Of a stretch of DNA of 64,000 nucleotides, positions 728-57,307 are shown in pieces (position 1 is the first letter of the stretch; each line of letters starts with the position of its first letter). The notes below the pieces were generated by a model. The model did not search any database. It was given only the letters and a program-made list of their open reading frames with translations, and had not been told where the DNA came from. The stretch lies in NCBI GenBank assembly GCA_937872685.1, contig CALMTS010000500.1:11560-75559 (forward strand). Direction: 5' to 3'. Position numbers and translations under genes: made by a program. The stretch comes from an uncultured Desulfomicrobium sp. Lineage in GTDB: Bacteria > Desulfobacterota > Desulfovibrionia > Desulfovibrionales > Desulfomicrobiaceae.

Positions 728-2815
728 CTAGATTTTGCGCACGCCGACGAAATGTTCCTGCATGGACAGGCAGCCGCCGCCCTTGTCCCAGCACTCCAGG
801 CCGCCGGGCATGAGCTCCTGGTCGGCCGCGCCCTTGCCGATGGCCCTGGATTCGACAGGCAGTCTGTGCCCGAATCCGTGGACCATGAACAGGGCTTCGG
901 GGTGGATGCAGTCCGTCACGAAGGCCCGGATCTTGCCGCTCTCGCCCCTGGCGGAGAAGACCTCGACCATGTCGCCGTCGGCAATGCCCATCTCCGCGGC
1001 GCGGCTGGTGTGGATCCAGGCCACGTTCTCGGGCATCTGCTCGGCCAGGAGGGGGTTGTTCACGGTGTGCCCCTGGGTGTGCACGCCGACGCGGCCGAAG
1101 GCGATGCGGAACATGCCCTTGGGCGGGCTGGCCGGAGAGGCATACGGCGGCAGGGTGTCATGGCCGGCTTTGGCCCACTTCCCGCTGGCCATTTCGATCT
1201 TGCCCGACGGAGTGGGCAGGGTGACTTCTGACATGGGGCGATAGAGCGGCTTGTCGGCAAGTTCCACGAAGCCCTTGGCGTCGAAGTCCTCGACGGTCAC
1301 GCCGGTGTCCTGCAGCTGGTAGTTCCAAAGGTCCTCGATCGTCTCGAAGGCCAGAGGGTCAAGCCCCAGGCGCTTGGCCAGCCCGCAGATGATTTCCCAG
1401 TCGGCCTTGGAGTCGAACGTCGGCTCCTGGGCGCGTTTGCGGACGAAAAACTGCGGCTTGAGGCCCGATTTTCCAGCGATGATGCTTTCCCGCGCCAGGT
1501 AGGTGGACAGGGGCAGGACCACGTCGGAATGCCAGGCCGTGTCGGACCAGGAGAAGGTGATGCTTACCAGGAGGTCCAGCTTTTCCCATTTCTTCTTGAG
1601 GGCCTCGGGGTCGGGCATGGCCATGAGGGGGTCGTGGCGGAAGCACAGGTAGGCCCTCACGGGGTAGGGTTCGTCGGTGACGATGGCGTCGTAGGCGAGA
1701 TTGACCAGGCCCGGGCCGCCGTCGAACTGCGGGTATTTCCAGCCGACGCCGTCGGCGCGTTTTTCTTCGGGTTTGGGGAAGAGGTCCACGAGCTTCTTGA
1801 GGCCCTTGCGGCCGACTTCCTTGGACGAATTGACGAAGGGCAGCCCGCCCTTGGCGCCGAAGGCCCCGAGCAGGGCGTTGATGATGTAGGCCGTGCGGCA
1901 GACCTGGAAGGAATCGTTGTAGCGCGCCACCATCCAGCCTGGGTGCCAGACCACGCTGGGCGCGGCTTCCGACAGCTGGCGGGCCAGGTCCCTGATGCCC
2001 TCGGCCGAAGCACCGGTTTCGGCGGCAGCCCATTCGGGCGTGTACGGCTTCACGAATTCCTTGAGGCGGTCGAAGCCGTCCACGAACTGCTCGACATATT
2101 CCTTGTTGTACAGATCGTCGAAGATGAGCGCGTGAATGACGCCCAGGTTGAATGCGTAGTCCGTGCCGGGGCGGATGAGGAAGAAGTTGTCGGCCTTGCT
2201 CGCGCTGACGTTGCCGCGGATGTCGATGACGGTCAGCTTCGCTCCGCCGGCGATGCCGTCCAGGGTCGCGTTGACCTCGGCGACATTGATGGCCTCCATG
2301 ATGTTGCGGGTCTGGAGGATGATGTGCTTGGCGTTGCGCAGGTCGTAGGCCACCATCTTGCGGCCCACGCCGATGACGGACTGGGCGCCGTGCTGCACGT
2401 TGCGGGCGCATGACGCGTCGTGGTTGCAGTAGTTGGGGGAGCCGATGCCGCGCATGAAGGCCTGGTGCAGGTCCGGGAATGGGCCGCCGCGGTCGGACCA
2501 GAGAACTGAGCGAGGTCCGTGTTCGGCCATGATGCCTTTGAGCTTGCCGGCTACGTAGTCCAGGGCTTCATCCCAGGAAACGGCCTTCCATTTGCCCTCG
2601 CCGCGCTCACCCGTGCGGATGAGGGGCGTCTGGGGCTTTTCCGGATCCTGTTCCAGGGCGATGCCCGCTGCACCGCGGGCGCAGAGCCCGCCCTTGAGCG
2701 GAGAAAATTCGTTTCCCTGGATACGAACGGCCTTGCCGTCCTGCACATCCACCTGGATCGGGCAGCGCACGGTGCACATGCCGCAGACACTAAATACAGT
2801 TTTGGTTGCCGTCAT
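728..2815 (-). CDS. Molybdopterin oxidoreductase catalytic subunit, thiosulfate/polysulfide reductase (PhsA/PsrA) type
   Basis: N-terminal CGMCTVRC...LCARG Fe-S motif, Cys-ligand region HDASCARN, ADVVLP-like HSDVVLP, C-terminal Mo-bis-PGD binding domain. Start MTATKT at 2815 with GGAGG SD. Confidence 0.85.
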   Translation of the reverse strand: MTATKTVFSVCGMCTVRCPIQVDVQDGKAVRIQGNEFSPLKGGLCARGAAGIALEQDPEKPQTPLIRTGERGEGKWKAVSWDEALDYVAGKLKGIMAEHGPRSVLWSDRGGPFPDLHQAFMRGIGSPNYCNHDASCARNVQHGAQSVIGVGRKMVAYDLRNAKHIILQTRNIMEAINVAEVNATLDGIAGGAKLTVIDIRGNVSASKADNFFLIRPGTDYAFNLGVIHALIFDDLYNKEYVEQFVDGFDRLKEFVKPYTPEWAAAETGASAEGIRDLARQLSEAAPSVVWHPGWMVARYNDSFQVCRTAYIINALLGAFGAKGGLPFVNSSKEVGRKGLKKLVDLFPKPEEKRADGVGWKYPQFDGGPGLVNLAYDAIVTDEPYPVRAYLCFRHDPLMAMPDPEALKKKWEKLDLLVSITFSWSDTAWHSDVVLPLSTYLARESIIAGKSGLKPQFFVRKRAQEPTFDSKADWEIICGLAKRLGLDPLAFETIEDLWNYQLQDTGVTVEDFDAKGFVELADKPLYRPMSEVTLPTPSGKIEMASGKWAKAGHDTLPPYASPASPPKGMFRIAFGRVGVHTQGHTVNNPLLAEQMPENVAWIHTSRAAEMGIADGDMVEVFSARGESGKIRAFVTDCIHPEALFMVHGFGHRLPVESRAIGKGAADQELMPGGLECWDKGGGCLSMQEHFVGVRKI

Positions 2816-3063
2816 GGCCTCCCCCCGGGAATAGCGCGGAGCCGGAATGCAAGGCTCCGCTGATGGTTGGTCGATATTGTGGTTTGTCACTAACGCCAGA
2901 ACTCCCCGATGCAAAATGGCCGGCAATAATGCGCCCTTTTTCACAAGGAGGGGGGCTTCCCGCCCGCGCTTCTCGTTTCCGGCCCTGCCCGCTTGTATCA
3001 AAAAGGGGTTAACGATTCCACTGCCGGCACGGCAGAGTCTGCAGCTTTGTGGGCAGTCGTCGG

Positions 3064-4476
3064 TTAATCCGGCAGCACGGCCACTCCGGCACCCAGGATC
3101 GTCAGCCCGCGCACCCGGTCCAGGAAGGAGCCCTGTTTCACGTCGGGACGCTCTTCGCCGGGCCGCAGGGTGGAGATGACCAGCATGCCGATCACGGCCC
3201 GCCCTTCTCCGCCGTCAGGCGTCGTGGTGCGTATGCCCCAGATGTTGTGGAGCATGAGCGGGTCGCCACGGTGGTTCGTGCCCAGGTACAGCCCGATGTG
3301 CCCCGGCATCCAGAGGAGGGAGACGAAGGGTGTGCCGCGGGAGCGGATCGTCCGGAGTTTTTCCTCGGCCGGCATGCCGTCGAGTTCGATCAGCGTGCCT
3401 CCCTGGCGGGCTTGCTGTGAGGAATTGCGGGGCAGCCAGATGCCGAAGGGCAGGAACAGGTCGCGCAGGGTGGAGGAGCAGTCCCGGTTTTCGAACATTC
3501 CGCCCCAGCCGTAGAGCTGGCCGGCCATGGCGTCCGCCAGCCCGGCCACACTCCGCGAGGTCAGGGGCAGGGGCATGAGCGCAGCCTGCAGGGGACTCAG
3601 GGTGGCCAGCCCCGTGCGCGCCATGCCGTCGGAGTCGCGAAGCGGGACCATGACCGCGAGTTCGGGGCCCCGGCGTGAGTGCAACGGGAAGATGGCCCCT
3701 ATGTGGGCCTGGCCCAGGAACCTTTGCGCGTCCATCAGGGGGGTGTCGTCGCTGCGGAGCGCAACCATGGCGCGTCTGCGGTACTGGCTGCGGAACGCTT
3801 CGTCTGCCATGGCGACGTCTTCGCGGCGAATCCAGCCCGACGAGAAGGCCGTCTCGACATAGAGCCACGCGCGGTCCCGGGAAGCGTGCGAGACGAAGAC
3901 GGGGGTGCCCAGCCAGATGGCGGTGTTCTGGAAATAATCGAAGGGGAAACCTTCGCCCGGCAGGGACGGGTCCAGGAAGAACGGCCGGTTGGACGGCAGG
4001 ACGCGCAAGGCCGTGTTGCGGGTGACGATGGCCGGGGCGGCCATGGACGGATAGGCCCCCATGTCCTGCAGGGCCACGAGCCGTTCCCAGCGTTCCCGGG
4101 GGTAGGGTCGCAGGTTTTCGGCGTAGCCCTGTTTGGTCCCGTAGGCGGCCGTGCCCCAGAACGCCTCGTCTGGCGGCAGTGACGCCTTCTTCTGGCTCCA
4201 CGGGGCATAGAAGCGCTCCAGGGCGCGTTCATGCAGGACGACCAGTTCCGTCATTTCCAGCAGGGGGGTGTCCGAGAGGGGGACCGCCAGCCCAACCCGT
4301 TGCGGGACGTCGAGGGCGACCTCGGGCGCCGGCTCGGGCTGGGCCGGGATCTCGGTCTGGACAGGGACGGGAACGGCCGGCGTCGCCGGCACGGGCTTGC
4401 CCGCGCATCCGGAGAAGACGGAGAGACTCAGCGCCACGCAGACGCACCACCGCCATGTGCCGGTACGACGCTTCAT
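3064..4476 (-). CDS. NlpC/P60 peptidoglycan endopeptidase lipoprotein with SH3-like N-terminal region
   Basis: Lipobox VFSGC; catalytic RDCSS, LPRNSSQQ, GHIGLYLG, LHN. Confidence 0.85.
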   Translation of the reverse strand: MKRRTGTWRWCVCVALSLSVFSGCAGKPVPATPAVPVPVQTEIPAQPEPAPEVALDVPQRVGLAVPLSDTPLLEMTELVVLHERALERFYAPWSQKKASLPPDEAFWGTAAYGTKQGYAENLRPYPRERWERLVALQDMGAYPSMAAPAIVTRNTALRVLPSNRPFFLDPSLPGEGFPFDYFQNTAIWLGTPVFVSHASRDRAWLYVETAFSSGWIRREDVAMADEAFRSQYRRRAMVALRSDDTPLMDAQRFLGQAHIGAIFPLHSRRGPELAVMVPLRDSDGMARTGLATLSPLQAALMPLPLTSRSVAGLADAMAGQLYGWGGMFENRDCSSTLRDLFLPFGIWLPRNSSQQARQGGTLIELDGMPAEEKLRTIRSRGTPFVSLLWMPGHIGLYLGTNHRGDPLMLHNIWGIRTTTPDGGEGRAVIGMLVISTLRPGEERPDVKQGSFLDRVRGLTILGAGVAVLPD

Positions 4477-52125: not shown

Positions 52126-52210
52126 GTTTCCGCCGAACGTGTATCAAGGACCAACCCAATTCGAATCAACCCCCGGTTTTCCCGGTATTCAAGCCTACAG
52201 GTTTCCAATC

Positions 52211-52750
52211 ATGAAGATTTTGCCCGTGAACGAGCTGGACATCCAGCCGGAGTTCGATTTTTCCACGTTTCTTTTTCTGGCTCAGGTCGATGAAATCGGC
52301 CCGCAGGAAATGCTTTCCGTACTTGGCGTATGGGAGAAATGGCTGCCCAGCCTCAAGATTTATCAGCTTGGAGAGCGCAAGGGGTTCGTACTGGTCTATC
52401 TGGAGCAGGGCGTGGAGGATCAGGTCGATGAGATCTGGAAGGCGTCCCCGTCGGAAGGCTTCAAGCACGAGGCCATCGCCCAGACCATGATCATGGGCAC
52501 GCTCAAGGCGCTCATGCCCGAACTCGGGGAGAAGGAGTGCGCGCCTGTGCCCGAACCGACCAAGCCTCTGCGCCGGACCCTGGAAAAGATCGGCCTGGAT
52601 CTGCAGGAATCGGGCGCCCTGAACCGCAAGTACGCGACCATAACTCCCTACCCCCACCGTTACGGCTGCGAACGCTGCCACCTGAAGGACAGCTGCATCA
52701 AGAACATGAACCTGGACCTGAGCGGGATCATGAAGGGCAAGGCGGAATAA
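52211..52750 (+). CDS. Hypothetical protein with C-terminal CxxCxxxxxC; weak resemblance to stand-alone methionine-synthase activation-like proteins
   Basis: Good codon usage; CERCHLKDSC. Family resemblance from memory only. Confidence 0.45.
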   Translation: MKILPVNELDIQPEFDFSTFLFLAQVDEIGPQEMLSVLGVWEKWLPSLKIYQLGERKGFVLVYLEQGVEDQVDEIWKASPSEGFKHEAIAQTMIMGTLKALMPELGEKECAPVPEPTKPLRRTLEKIGLDLQESGALNRKYATITPYPHRYGCERCHLKDSCIKNMNLDLSGIMKGKAE

Positions 52751-52784: not shown

Positions 52785-52814
52785 AGGGCGGAGCCGGTGA
52801 TGCGGCTCCGCCCT
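52785..52814. terminator. Hairpin between convergent genes, probable terminator
   Basis: 12-bp perfect stem AGGGCGGAGCCG/CGGCTCCGCCCT; T-tracts weak. Confidence 0.6.
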
Positions 52815-52915
52815 CGATGTTTCTCGTCTTTGCATGTCGCCTGCGCCGCAGTGAAGGCTGCGGCGCAGGCGGCTGGGCGCCATTCCGAAATCGGGTTGCC
52901 GGCTTGGCCGGGTCT

Positions 52916-54010
52916 TCAATCCCCGAAGGCCTGGGCCATGAGGTGCCGGTACAGCCCGCCCAACTCGTCGGGCGTGCGGCCGAGCACGGCCTGCCAGACT
53001 TCGTCGGACTCCATGCACAGGTAGAGCTGCCGGTCCAGTCCGCCGTTTTGCAGCTTTCCGGCCAGGAAGCGGAGCTGCTCCACGCGCAGCGGCCGCAGGA
53101 GCCTCTGCTTGCCGTCCACCCCGGTCACGAATTCCCCGTAAATGTAGGCTGATTGCGGGAAATTCTCGCTGATGCAGCGCTTGAGATCGGGCATGTGCCG
53201 GAACGATCCCATGCTGACATAGGCGATCTGGGATGGCCGCAAGTGATCGAAGATCATCTCCACGGTGCGCGCGTAGCCGTCCTGCCAGCCCGGGAAATGG
53301 ATGACCGGGTCGAAGTGCAGACAGACCCGGAATCCGGCCTGGGCGCAGGTCCTGGCGGCGATGAGACGCTCCTCCAGGCTCGCGCATTCCCCTTGCTCCT
53401 CCTGATCGACGATGAACGGCGCGTTCATGGACCAGGCCGGCAGGACGCGGGATGGGTCGCGCACCGCATCCATCCAGGAGAGGTCCACGACCTTGGATTT
53501 GAGTTCCAGGCAGACCTGGGGATAGCGCCCCAGGAAACCCACCAGATCCCGGCTGAAGCCCGTCAGGGCTTCAAGCACCAGGGAGTCGGTGAATTCGCCG
53601 GTCCCGACCCGGTAGCGCCGCCCCGGGTGGGCGGCGAAGGACTGGTCCAGCTCCGTCCACAGGTCGTCCTGGTTGGCCCAGACCTTGAGCACGCGATCCT
53701 GGAAATAGGCCTGCAGGATGCAGTAGGAGCAGCGCAAGGGACAGTTTTCACCGATGTGGATGATCTGGTAGCCGCAGCAGCGGTAGTGGCTGGTGCCTGG
53801 GCAATGGCGCAGGAAGCGGCCGCGGTATTTCTTGAGATAGAGGATGTCCTCGCGGGCCAGGCCCGGCGTCAGAGTCTGCCCTTCCGCCAGGATTTCCGGG
53901 TGCAGATGCGGGAGTTTTTCGCGCACGCGGCAGGCAATGGGCGTGTCGAGTACGGCCTCGTCGACCACGACCCTGCTGATGCCGTGCAGATGCGCAGGCA
54001 GGGCCGTCAT
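52916..54010 (-). CDS. Radical SAM protein, spore photoproduct lyase (SplB)-like
   Basis: CPLRCSYCILQ, LELKSK, WSMN, ASLEERL.AA, FDPVI..PGW..GY, colinear with SPL; ATGA overlap with the upstream gene. Confidence 0.85.
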   Translation of the reverse strand: MTALPAHLHGISRVVVDEAVLDTPIACRVREKLPHLHPEILAEGQTLTPGLAREDILYLKKYRGRFLRHCPGTSHYRCCGYQIIHIGENCPLRCSYCILQAYFQDRVLKVWANQDDLWTELDQSFAAHPGRRYRVGTGEFTDSLVLEALTGFSRDLVGFLGRYPQVCLELKSKVVDLSWMDAVRDPSRVLPAWSMNAPFIVDQEEQGECASLEERLIAARTCAQAGFRVCLHFDPVIHFPGWQDGYARTVEMIFDHLRPSQIAYVSMGSFRHMPDLKRCISENFPQSAYIYGEFVTGVDGKQRLLRPLRVEQLRFLAGKLQNGGLDRQLYLCMESDEVWQAVLGRTPDELGGLYRHLMAQAFGD

Positions 54011-54978
54011 GAGTCCTCCGCGGGGAACAGGGACGCCAGATCCTTCCGGGCCGCGATGAGCGTCAATTCGGTCGCCGCCGCACGGAGTTCCGCCGGGCTT
54101 TTCACGCGCACGGTCATTTCGACCGCGCCGCTCTCGAACTGGTCCGGCTGGACCATGCGCCAACGCGTTCCGGCCGAGGTTTTGCGGGCCGCCTCGGCGA
54201 AGTCCCGCTCCAGGGCCGACAGGCGCGGGAAGCGCCGCCGCCGCACCTCAAAGGCGATGCGGGTCATGACGTCCTTGGGCGAGAGTCCGGATTCCAGGAT
54301 TTCCCGCATGCCGCAATCTTCCAGGAGGGCGCCAGCGCCGATTCCGTCCCGCAGGCTGGTTTCCCGCAGCCAGGTCAGCAGGTTGACCGCATTGCCTCGC
54401 GACCAGGACAGGCTGTTGAAAAGGGGCTCGAGGCCGGGGAGTTCCTCACGGGGGAATCCGGCCAGCAGCTCCGCGCAGGCCAGGGGGACGTTGTTCAGCA
54501 GGAGGTCCCATTTTTTCGGCAGAGTCAGCCATGCATCGATAAGGCGCAGGCGCTTCGACCGGGGTTCAAGTCCCAGGCTTTCGAGCACGGGAGACATGTC
54601 CGCCGACGGGATGGACCGGAAATAGCGCATGGCAGCCACGACCTGCGCGTCGTTGAGTTCGCGGTCGATGTTGGACTGCATGTGCGCGAGGCCTCGCGCC
54701 ATCTCGTCCAGGGAGCCCAGGTCCAGGCACAGGACGTCCCTGCCGGCCGCAGCCAGAGCCGCCACCCGCGCCGCGCCCGCGATCAGGACGGGCGTCGGTC
54801 CGCTGGCGTCCACCAGCACCGGGACTAGTTGGCCGTGGCGCTCCAGGCTGCGGATGAGGGCGGGGGTGGGGGCGGATGACCAGAAGAGCCATGCGCCGGA
54901 CGTGTCGATATGCGTTGCCGGGCAGCGCAGGGTTCGGCTGTCTTCAGGCGCTGGCGAAGATGCGGCGGCCGTGCTCAT
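54007..54978 (-). CDS. ParB-like protein (ParB/Srx N-terminal domain, helical middle, ParB-like C-terminus)
   Basis: LIRSLERHGQLVPVLV, LIAGAARVAA (GxxR box), SNIDRELN. Confidence 0.7.
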   Translation of the reverse strand: MSTAAASSPAPEDSRTLRCPATHIDTSGAWLFWSSAPTPALIRSLERHGQLVPVLVDASGPTPVLIAGAARVAALAAAGRDVLCLDLGSLDEMARGLAHMQSNIDRELNDAQVVAAMRYFRSIPSADMSPVLESLGLEPRSKRLRLIDAWLTLPKKWDLLLNNVPLACAELLAGFPREELPGLEPLFNSLSWSRGNAVNLLTWLRETSLRDGIGAGALLEDCGMREILESGLSPKDVMTRIAFEVRRRRFPRLSALERDFAEAARKTSAGTRWRMVQPDQFESGAVEMTVRVKSPAELRAAATELTLIAARKDLASLFPAEDS

Positions 54979-55032
54979 GATTTTCTCTCAACAATTTTGA
55001 AGAATTATGCGTTGCTGAAAATTCAACTGCTC

Positions 55033-55062
55033 TTGACAACTTCCAAGACCCCTCCCTATACG
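55033..55062 (+). promoter_or_regulatory. Putative sigma70 promoter of the EF-G paralogue
   Basis: TTGACA-18-TATACG; implies a leader of about 180 nt. Confidence 0.5.
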
Positions 55063-55246
55063 GGTATTTCTTGAAAAAAGTTCAGGATAGCAAGAGGTTT
55101 GCAAGGTCTCCGGACAATGGAGCATGGGACCTTCAACCAATTTCTTCTCTTTTGCAAGCGAATTCCCGGCCTTCATTCAGACAGGCCGGGAAGGTCTTAT
55201 ACCCTGTAGCCGTATGGTTGCGTAATACTTTGCATAAGGGGGCTGT

Positions 55247-57307
55247 ATGCAGGATCAACTTCAAAAACAGAGGACTTTCGCCCTGATAGGGCATGGAGGA
55301 ACCGGGAAAACGTCGGTGGCCGAGATGCTGCTGTTCAATTCCGGTTCCATCACGAGGTTGGGAAAGATCGACGAAGGGACCACCGCCCTTGACTACGAGC
55401 CCGAGGAGATCAAGCGCCGGGGCAGCATCCAGCCGGCCTTCGCCCAGTTCGCCTGGAAAAAGAACCTGAACTTTCTTATCGATACGCCCGGCGACAACAA
55501 TTTCATCGGAGATCTTCCCTATCTCATGCAGGGCGCGGACAATGCCGTCCTGGTCATCGACGCCATCGACGGGGTCAAGCCCCTGACCAAGAAGATCTGG
55601 TCCGAAGTGGACAAGGCCGGCCTGCCTGCCATGGTCTTCATCAACAAGATGGACCGGGAACGAGCCAATTTTCAGATGGCCTACCAGGGCCTTTCCGACG
55701 TCCTCGGCATCAAGCCGGTTCTGCTCTTCATGCCCATCGGCAGCGAGACGAGCTTCAGCGGCGTGGTCGATGTGCTTGCCGGAAAAGCCTACTCCTTTGA
55801 CGAGAAGGGCGAGCTCAAAGCCATCGACATGCCTGCGGACCTCGCCGACGAAGTTACCACGGCCCGCGAGATCGCCGTCGAGAATATCGCGGAGAGCAGC
55901 GAAGAGCTGATGGAGAAATATCTCGAGGAAGGGGAGCTCACGGAAGAAGAGATGACCGAGGGACTGCGCGCAGGCGTTTTGAGCCGTGCCCTTGTTCCGG
56001 TCTGCGCCGGGGCCGCCTTGCAGAACAAGGGCGGGTGGCCGCTTCTGGACATCCTGCAGAACTATATGGCTTCGCCTCTGGAGCACGCGGCATGGCTGGA
56101 CGCCGACGGAAACGAGCGTCCGTCGAGTCATGACGCCCCCTTCGCTGCCTTTGTCTTCAAGACCATCGCCGATCCCTTTGCCGGCCAGCTTTCGGTCATG
56201 CGCGTGCTTTCGGGCGTCCTGTCCCCCGACGCCTCGGTCCTGAACGCAACCAAGGACGAAAAGGAAAAGATCGGACAGATCCTTTTCCTCGAAGGCAAAA
56301 AGCAGACCCCGTGCAAGCAGGAAGTCGGTCCCGGGGCCGTGGTGGCCGTGGCCAAGCTCAAGAGCACCGTGACCGGCGACACCCTGTGCGCCGAGAAAGC
56401 CCCCTTTGTCCTGCCCAAGCCGGCCCTGAGCCCGGCCATCATCTCCTACGCCCTGGCGGCGGCCGAGAAGGGCGACGAAGACAAGGTCTTCGCCGCGGTC
56501 CAGAAACTCCTCGACGAAGACATCAATCTGCATCTGGTGCGCAATGACGAGACCGGCGACATGCTCCTGACGGGCATGGGCCAGCTGCATATCGAACTGG
56601 CCGTGGAGAAGGTCAAGCGCCGCTACAAGACAAATATCGTGCTTAAGACCCCCAAGATCCCCTACCGCGAGACCATCAAGGGCAAGGCACAGGTCCAGGG
56701 CCGTCACAAGAAGCAGTCCGGAGGCCGCGGCCAGTTCGGCGACTGCTGGATTCGCATGGAGCCCAACAAGCGCGGGGGCGGCTACGAGTTTCTTGACGAG
56801 ATCGTGGGCGGCTCCATCCCGCGCAACTACATCCCTGCTGTGGACAAGGGCGTCCAGGAAGCTGCCGCGCGCGGTTTTCTGGCCGGCTACCCCCTGGTCG
56901 ACTTCAAGGTGGCGGTCTACGACGGCTCCTACCACACTGTGGATTCCTCGGAAATGGCCTTCAAGATCGCCGGCTCCCTGGCCTTCAAGAAGGCTGTCGA
57001 AATGTGCAACCCCATCCTGCTCGAACCCATCATGCTCGCCGCGGTCTTCATCCCCGATGAGTTCATGGGCGACGTCATCGGCGACCTTTCCAGCCGCCGC
57101 GGCCGCGTCCTGGGCTCCGACTCCATCGGCGGCATCACCGAGGTCAAGGCCCACGTGCCCATGGCCGAAATGATGAAGTACGCCCCGGACCTGCGCTCCA
57201 TGACCGGCGGCCAGGGCACCTTCACCATGGAGTTCGCCCACTACGAGGAATGCCCGCCCAACGTGACCGAACAGGTCATCGCCGAGAGCAAGAAGGAAGA
57301 GGAATAG
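55247..57307 (+). CDS. Elongation factor G paralogue (EF-G II / FusA2 type)
   Basis: GHGGTGKT, DTPG, NKMD, PKIPYRETI, HKKQSGGRGQFG, SRRG, LRSMTGGQG; switch I and the catalytic His diverge. Confidence 0.9.
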   Translation: MQDQLQKQRTFALIGHGGTGKTSVAEMLLFNSGSITRLGKIDEGTTALDYEPEEIKRRGSIQPAFAQFAWKKNLNFLIDTPGDNNFIGDLPYLMQGADNAVLVIDAIDGVKPLTKKIWSEVDKAGLPAMVFINKMDRERANFQMAYQGLSDVLGIKPVLLFMPIGSETSFSGVVDVLAGKAYSFDEKGELKAIDMPADLADEVTTAREIAVENIAESSEELMEKYLEEGELTEEEMTEGLRAGVLSRALVPVCAGAALQNKGGWPLLDILQNYMASPLEHAAWLDADGNERPSSHDAPFAAFVFKTIADPFAGQLSVMRVLSGVLSPDASVLNATKDEKEKIGQILFLEGKKQTPCKQEVGPGAVVAVAKLKSTVTGDTLCAEKAPFVLPKPALSPAIISYALAAAEKGDEDKVFAAVQKLLDEDINLHLVRNDETGDMLLTGMGQLHIELAVEKVKRRYKTNIVLKTPKIPYRETIKGKAQVQGRHKKQSGGRGQFGDCWIRMEPNKRGGGYEFLDEIVGGSIPRNYIPAVDKGVQEAAARGFLAGYPLVDFKVAVYDGSYHTVDSSEMAFKIAGSLAFKKAVEMCNPILLEPIMLAAVFIPDEFMGDVIGDLSSRRGRVLGSDSIGGITEVKAHVPMAEMMKYAPDLRSMTGGQGTFTMEFAHYEECPPNVTEQVIAESKKEEE

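Follow-up and report, generated by a model that had tools for sequence, protein, structure and literature searches.

The 64,000-nt stretch analyzed here (the window; contig CALMTS010000500.1 of an uncultured Desulfomicrobium sp.) carries a reverse-strand two-gene operon that encodes a ParB-like protein, P0001, and a radical S-adenosylmethionine (SAM) enzyme of the spore photoproduct lyase (SPL) family, P0002. The pair is laid out as follows.

54007..54978, minus strand: ParB-like gene (gene 1, P0001), 323 aa
52916..54010, minus strand: SPL-family radical SAM gene (gene 2, P0002), 364 aa, ATG at 54010
54007..54010, minus strand: ATGA start/stop overlap of gene 1 and gene 2, read from the sequence

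Both open reading frames (ORFs) are real genes, with homologs down to E = 1e-194 for the ParB-like gene and E = 1e-252 for the SPL-like gene. The start of gene 2 was set at the ATG at 54010 because homologs start at MTALP; the ORF list had placed it at an upstream TTG. The ATGA overlap suggests translational coupling of the two genes, and in related Desulfomicrobium loci their tblastn matches are contiguous or only a few bases apart. An earlier model-made reading of the same letters (the sequence-only reading) had described an ATGA-coupled two-gene unit with a divergent AT-rich upstream region, a downstream hairpin, and no parA nearby. Each of these features was found, and those outside the two genes are described with the flanks of the operon below.

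P0002 scored 64.5 bits against the Pfam SPL family PF20903, above the cut-off of 27, and 61.6 bits against the SPL equivalog model TIGR04070, where it failed the cut-off of 400. Its AlphaFold2 (AF2) model (pLDDT 89.4) was aligned by Foldseek to SPL structures 4rh0, 4fhf, and 4k9r over 345–349 columns with TM-scores of 0.72–0.78 and E = 6e-18, and the next radical SAM enzyme in the ranking stood at 4.5e-7. The predicted colinearity of gene 2 with SPL therefore holds, over 346 columns. The model contains the SPL-specific fold, with an alpha/beta domain at the N terminus, a partial TIM barrel, and a C-terminal beta-hairpin. The hairpin spans residues 294–304 (strands 294–296 and 302–304) and includes invariant D299, K301, and R303. 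The cluster motif CX3CX2C reads C90-PLR-C94-SY-C97 and is invariant across the phylum. Further cysteines, C70, C78, C79, and C332, are invariant in the phylum-wide columns of the enzyme family. A 6-residue insertion bears Cys78 and Cys79 together with Tyr81, also invariant, as a CC-x-Y motif.

Residue roles have been assigned in the SPL of G. thermodenitrificans, where Tyr98 belongs to the radical relay and Arg193 and Glu268 bind the lesion through hydrogen bonds to dihydrothymine (PMC3467042). In P0002, the equivalent of Tyr96 is retained and Tyr98 is replaced by Ile98. Arg193 aligns with Ala192, and the family profile has a gap at Glu268. The Cys140 site is occupied by Glu139 within an invariant GTGE139FTDS motif. 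Because the pocket is rebuilt in this way (Glu139, Ile98, no Arg193 or Glu268, and the CC-x-Y insertion), the substrate is not expected to be the classic spore photoproduct. With E = 1e-36, the phylum-wide enzyme profile matched SPL chains, of which the S76C mutant chain 4rh0 scored best. Invariant Cys70, in a CPGT loop, aligned on the cysteine of that chain, which corresponds to Ser76 of the G. thermodenitrificans enzyme and to the H-atom donor position of the Clostridium type. The claim that the enzyme lacks the catalytic cysteine holds for Cys140, replaced by glutamate, but is too strong as a general statement because Cys70 aligns with the Clostridium-type position.

P0002 resembles SplB (G. 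thermodenitrificans structures 4FHC–4FHG, 4K9R, and 4RH0) in its full fold, CX3CX2C motif, Tyr96, and Cys70, which aligns with the Clostridium-type donor position. It differs from SplB in having ~17% identity, in its TIGR04070 score, in the replacements at Cys140 and Tyr98 and the loss of Arg193 and Glu268, and in the invariant residues of the insertion and Cys332. Its partner is ParB-like rather than SplA, and its hosts do not sporulate. P0002 belongs to a branch of its own within the SPL family and is not a plain spore photoproduct lyase, which agrees with the sequence-only reading.

The single P0001 sequence had no meaningful match in Pfam, NCBIfam, or PADLOC. A profile of 24 homologs matched Noc/ParB/Spo0J chains with E = 1.4e-5 over residues 28–183, which cover the N-domain and the helix-turn-helix (HTH). 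The AF2 model (pLDDT 91.3) returned 7bnr, 7nfu, and 6sdk as top PDB entries in Foldseek with probability 1.00. The best PDB fold matches were Myxococcus xanthus ParB-CTPγS, Noc, Spo0J, and PadC, and Srx and SerK were among the distant fold matches of the N-domain. With the genome's own ParB, hhalign gave 83% probability over residues 13–175 only. The ParB N-domain proposed from the letters was thus recovered by both profile and fold. P0001 consists of a ParB/Srx-type N-domain, a middle domain of HTH type, and a C-terminal domain of ~130 aa that is specific to the family.

The degenerate arginine box GAARVAA and the SN..R.L motif, both spotted beforehand, lie at residues 68–74 and 102–108 (S-N-I-D-R-E-L). 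Where the genome's own ParB has NVHQPR, GERRWRA, and ENLQRE, P0001 has SGAWLFW, GAARVAA, and QSNIDR, and it retains one of the three box-II arginines. Box II (GxRR) and box III (ENxxR..N..E) are largely retained across the wider ParB-like family, which lacks NPxQPR throughout. The idea that P0001 is a cytidine triphosphate (CTP)-gated sliding clamp was not upheld by these motifs. The ParB/Spo0J and Noc CTPase clamps (7BNR, 6SDK, and 7NFU) are the best structure and profile matches of residues ~13–190, but P0001 differs from them in lacking NPxQPR, in having GAARVAA for GERRxRA and QSNIDR for ENLQR, and in its longer, different C-terminal region. Unlike them, it has no adjacent parA, and the canonical parAB genes are elsewhere in the genome.

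Foldseek gave no PDB match for P0001 residues ~200–323. The C-terminal ~130 residues are conserved family-wide and include R249-x-P251 (R-x-P-x-L) followed by F281-E282 (P-x-x-F-E-G). A ParB-like C-terminus had been proposed; the last 50 residues do form a strand-strand-helix that resembles the C-terminus of the genome's own ParB by eye only, but the hhalign alignment stops at residue 175 and PDB matches stop at ~200. P0001 is a divergent ParB/Noc-fold protein and not a canonical ParB.

The SPL-like gene is directly 3′ of the ParB-like gene in 27/27 named Desulfovibrionales loci whose sequence extends downstream (Desulfomicrobium, Pseudodesulfovibrio, Desulfonatronovibrionaceae, and others). 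Where these loci include upstream flank, the order divergent elongation factor G (EF-G) paralog, ParB-like gene, SPL-like gene is constant. Across Desulfovibrionales, identity is 59–89% for the enzyme and 34–69% for the ParB-like partner. Of 401 genomes sampled from the phylum, 243 have an SPL-like ortholog (a background rate of 61%); in most sampled Desulfobacterota, this sister branch of SPL is represented by a core gene present in single copy. A ParB-like gene is directly 5′ of the enzyme in 22/29 and 12/20 inspected phylum loci. In 54 metagenome loci whose upstream DNA was long enough, it is directly 5′ in 31 and within 1–5 kb in 3 more. Of 84 genomes with a full-length match to the ParB-like protein, ~82 also encode the enzyme; in ~20 of these, the two genes lie on separate contigs. 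The ParB-like profile was built from Desulfovibrionales sequences, and enzyme-only genomes may reflect its limited sensitivity; at E ≤ 1e-10, the family comprises ~1,300 clusters at 50% identity. Conservation of the neighborhood, which the earlier reading had named as a check, was observed, and these data support a functional pairing of the two genes that is conserved: they are neighbors in most loci and occur together even where unlinked.

A search with the enzyme found no match on plasmids and just two in phages, both weak and partial, and viral contigs contained no relatives of the enzyme by family motifs. A mobile-element or defense-island reading was rejected on this basis. PADLOC matched neither protein; the pair is therefore not a listed defense system. 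No fusion of the ParB-like and SPL-like genes was confirmed. Long ORFs over both genes in two loci (L063 and L115) are spurious GC-rich frames or unrelated neighbors (U32 peptidase).

Other genes recur beside the pair outside Desulfovibrionales. A single-stranded DNA-binding protein (SSB) gene is directly 3′ of the SPL-like gene in 10 metagenome loci of other lineages (L132:3710-4129 and 9 similar). A staphylococcal-type nuclease (SNase) gene takes this place in 11 loci (L140:8255-8938, L154:8093-8737, and 9 similar), and one copy has a weak Ada zinc-binding match. Directly 5′, 8 metagenome loci carry a GT2 glycosyltransferase gene, as do three sampled phylum genomes, G128, G046, and G110 (L020/L070, L028, and L080); GT2/ParB-like/SPL-like trios occur in L028 and L080. 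The sequence-only reading does not mention this GT2 association. The GT2 proteins are closest to polysaccharide-type transferases, all under family cut-offs. Neither the window nor the ±8-kb flanks of the Desulfovibrionales loci contained a GT2 gene. A MiaB/RimO-type methylthiotransferase gene is near the enzyme gene in 11 metagenome loci, and no membrane or export genes adjoin the pair in a conserved manner. The housekeeping purine gene purC is 5′ of the ParB-like gene in 9/20 phylum loci; it was considered as a third component and rejected as synteny. In one locus (L077, G264:C1, 750-2616 and 8995-10089), purC and the ParB-like gene are together and the SPL-like gene lies 7 kb from them, which shows that position does not always tie the ParB-like gene to the enzyme.

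Our interpretation, made with moderate confidence, is that the pair forms a two-component radical SAM system that is directed at DNA, uses a ParB-derived adaptor, is chromosomal and vertically inherited, and serves a purpose other than classic spore-photoproduct repair. Folds, motifs, gene coupling, conservation, and co-occurrence are the observed basis, and from these we infer that DNA is the target, that the two proteins interact physically, and that P0001 acts as the adaptor. The enzyme would bind SAM and a [4Fe-4S] cluster held by C90, C94, and C97 and would generate a 5′-deoxyadenosyl radical. Its SPL-type beta-hairpin would reach the flipped-out base or bases, with Cys70 in the loop that in SPL holds the 3′ base. 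The ParB-derived protein would be a dedicated adaptor or activator of the enzyme. Its N-domain and HTH may bind DNA or open it locally, and its family-specific C-terminal domain may contact the enzyme. A DNA target appears plausible from the predicted full SPL fold with its beta-hairpin, the ParB N-domain and HTH of the partner, and the SSB and SNase neighbors. The reaction could be lesion reversal or base modification, and the GT2 partner in other lineages favors modification.

In its mode of action, such an adaptor would resemble the ParB-like helpers of phage thymine dioxygenases and of DpdA. In the Dpd system of 7-deazaguanine DNA modification, the ParB-like protein DpdB reportedly works with DpdA, the enzyme that inserts the modified base into DNA. 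The likeness lies in a ParB-like protein working with a DNA-base enzyme. DpdA differs in being a transglycosylase and not a radical enzyme, and Dpd lies in a mobile restriction-modification island. In the operon described here, the ATGA overlap, adjacency, and co-occurrence couple a dedicated ParB-like gene to a putative DNA-acting enzyme. The phage thymine dioxygenase 5mYOX needs a co-encoded ParB-like activator on double-stranded DNA, and mutating the nucleoside triphosphate (NTP)-binding residues did not abolish function (PMC13229309). Here, too, a candidate base-modifying enzyme is accompanied by a dedicated ParB-like helper, and the tolerated loss of the NTP site fits the non-intact CTP pocket of P0001. 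The 5mYOX system is phage-borne, uses an Fe(II)/2-oxoglutarate dioxygenase that needs oxygen, and has a ParB without an obvious DNA-binding domain, whereas the present pair has a radical SAM enzyme and a partner that has a domain of HTH type and differs in its C-terminal domain, is chromosomal, and has no viral relatives found.

A more specific proposal is that the pair, with the GT2 co-inherited in other lineages, installs a new and possibly sugar-bearing base modification in the cell's own chromosomal DNA without oxygen, the ParB-derived adaptor giving access to double-stranded DNA. We regard this version as speculative and improbable as a whole. If true, a GT2-linked modification would be the anaerobic cellular counterpart of ParB-dependent TET/JBP-type phage systems.

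Several observations weigh against a DNA-directed enzyme with a ParB-derived adaptor. In ~20 of the 54 metagenome loci and in several phylum families, the enzyme has no adjacent or detectable ParB-like gene, and it may therefore act alone. The CTP-pocket motifs NPxQPR, GERRxRA, and ENLQR are missing or degenerate in P0001, which makes canonical ParB-type DNA loading doubtful. The HTH segment of P0001 is acidic, with an isoelectric point of 4.9 (6.05 for the whole protein). Finally, the GT2 partner and the housekeeping neighbors (purC and EF-G) would fit an RNA or a non-nucleic-acid target as well.

These points bear on three alternatives. In Bacillus, splA regulates splB, and by analogy P0002 could be a stand-alone, light-independent lyase for UV-type pyrimidine lesions, either spore photoproduct or a close analog, with the ParB-like protein as only a regulator or DNA-damage sensor. 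The retained SPL fold, cluster motif, Tyr96, and Clostridium-type cysteine agree with this, some lineages have the enzyme without the adjacent gene, and the highly conserved intergenic region upstream could hold an operator. We nevertheless consider it unlikely. The dihydrothymine-bonding Arg193 and Glu268 are not conserved, nor is Tyr98, and Cys140 is an invariant Glu. The hosts, judged from the earlier reading and the names of the homologs, are non-sporulating. A partner that accompanies the enzyme even from an unlinked site and retains an additional conserved domain of 130 aa exceeds the needs of a local regulator, and co-inheritance with a glycosyltransferase in other lineages does not suit simple repair.

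The other two alternatives move the target away from DNA. A pair that modifies tRNA or rRNA, with the ParB/Srx-HTH protein as an RNA- or nucleotide-binding specificity factor, is in our view improbable. Within this fold family, the sole characterized enzyme has DNA as its substrate (PMC3467042), and the SSB and SNase neighbors point to DNA as well. The EF-G paralog, which recurs beside the pair in Desulfovibrionales and is differently arranged in other lineages, would be in keeping with an RNA target, but its adjacency may be plain synteny. Single-copy, housekeeping-type inheritance, the very high conservation of the enzyme relative to its partner, and the nearby methylthiotransferase genes also suit RNA. 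Proteins of known function that have a ParB N-domain and an HTH, such as ParB, Noc, and KorB, however, bind DNA. The least probable of the three is that the pair and GT2 build or tailor a non-nucleic-acid molecule (a glycan, lipid, or small metabolite), with the ParB/Srx domain as a phosphotransferase-type enzyme like sulfiredoxin or the serine kinase SerK. The position of GT2 directly 5′ of the enzyme, its nearness to polysaccharide-type transferases, and the Srx and SerK fold matches are consistent with such a role. P0001, however, matches ParB/Noc over the N-domain and HTH, beyond the Srx core, and no membrane or export genes are conserved beside the pair. The enzyme also retains the SPL-specific N-terminal domain and hairpin, which are DNA-binding parts in SPL (PMC3467042).

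The interest of a DNA-directed pair lies in its enzyme family and its distribution. To our knowledge, SPL is the only characterized enzyme of its fold, and it is regarded as a spore specialty. Literature searches on the pairing of ParB-like proteins with SPL or radical SAM enzymes found no description of the pair, and Aravind's 2013 survey ties SplB-like enzymes to ImuB-C and DUF4130/UDG rather than to ParB. As far as searched, the ParB-like/SPL-like pair is new to print. The substrate of an SPL sister branch that is present in most sampled Desulfobacterota and has its own ParB-derived partner would reveal a route of repair or modification, possibly light- and oxygen-independent DNA repair in anaerobes or a new chromosomal DNA modification. 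The few enzymes that depend on a ParB-like helper would gain a radical SAM member, and the known roles of the ParB fold would widen past chromosome segregation.

The flanks of the operon contain the following features.

54979..55246: divergent intergenic region, 268 bp, between the ParB-like gene and the EF-G paralog
55247-57307, plus strand: EF-G paralog, 686 aa, divergent neighbor
52785..52871: two perfect GC-rich hairpins, 3′ of the operon stop codon
52139-52750, plus strand: gene for a 203-aa protein, converging on the operon, no Pfam match, C-terminal CxxC-type motif

The intergenic region has a GC content of ~49–55% versus ~65–68% within the two genes. A sigma-70 consensus scan for the operon promoter gave 0 sites; the promoter of the operon must lie in this region. 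An alignment of 10 Desulfomicrobium-related loci showed long invariant blocks in the region, which is far better conserved across these loci than the ParB-like protein itself. On the plus strand, TTGACA (55033-55038) and TATACG (55057-55062) are separated by 18 nt and lie ~185 nt 5′ of the EF-G start. Together with the conserved intergenic DNA, these hexamers suggest a long conserved EF-G leader. A hairpin at 55163-55192 with 10-bp arms (TTCCCGGCCT...AGGCCGGGAA) has arms that co-vary between species and flanks that are fixed; it may represent a structured part of the EF-G 5′ leader or an operator. In other lineages, EF-G and the SPL-like gene are a few kb apart at most and differently arranged (L073, L077, and 9 metagenome loci). 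The adjacency of EF-G could reflect synteny or a functional link.

No parA-like ORF is present among the ORFs listed for 49–59 kb of the window. The genome's canonical parA-parB pair sits on another contig (C376). There, parA (272 aa) and parB (294 aa) lie within 982-3165 (L001), ~480 bp apart, neither adjacent nor overlapping.

Downstream of the operon, hairpin 1 (52838-52871) has 14-bp arms, and hairpin 2 (52785-52814) has 12-bp arms with a T-rich tail on both strands. Hairpin 2 is probably a bidirectional terminator common to the operon and the convergent gene at 52139-52750. This gene for the 203-aa protein adjoins the pair in Desulfomicrobium loci with 72–83% identity, and it is present but non-adjacent in several Pseudodesulfovibrio loci.

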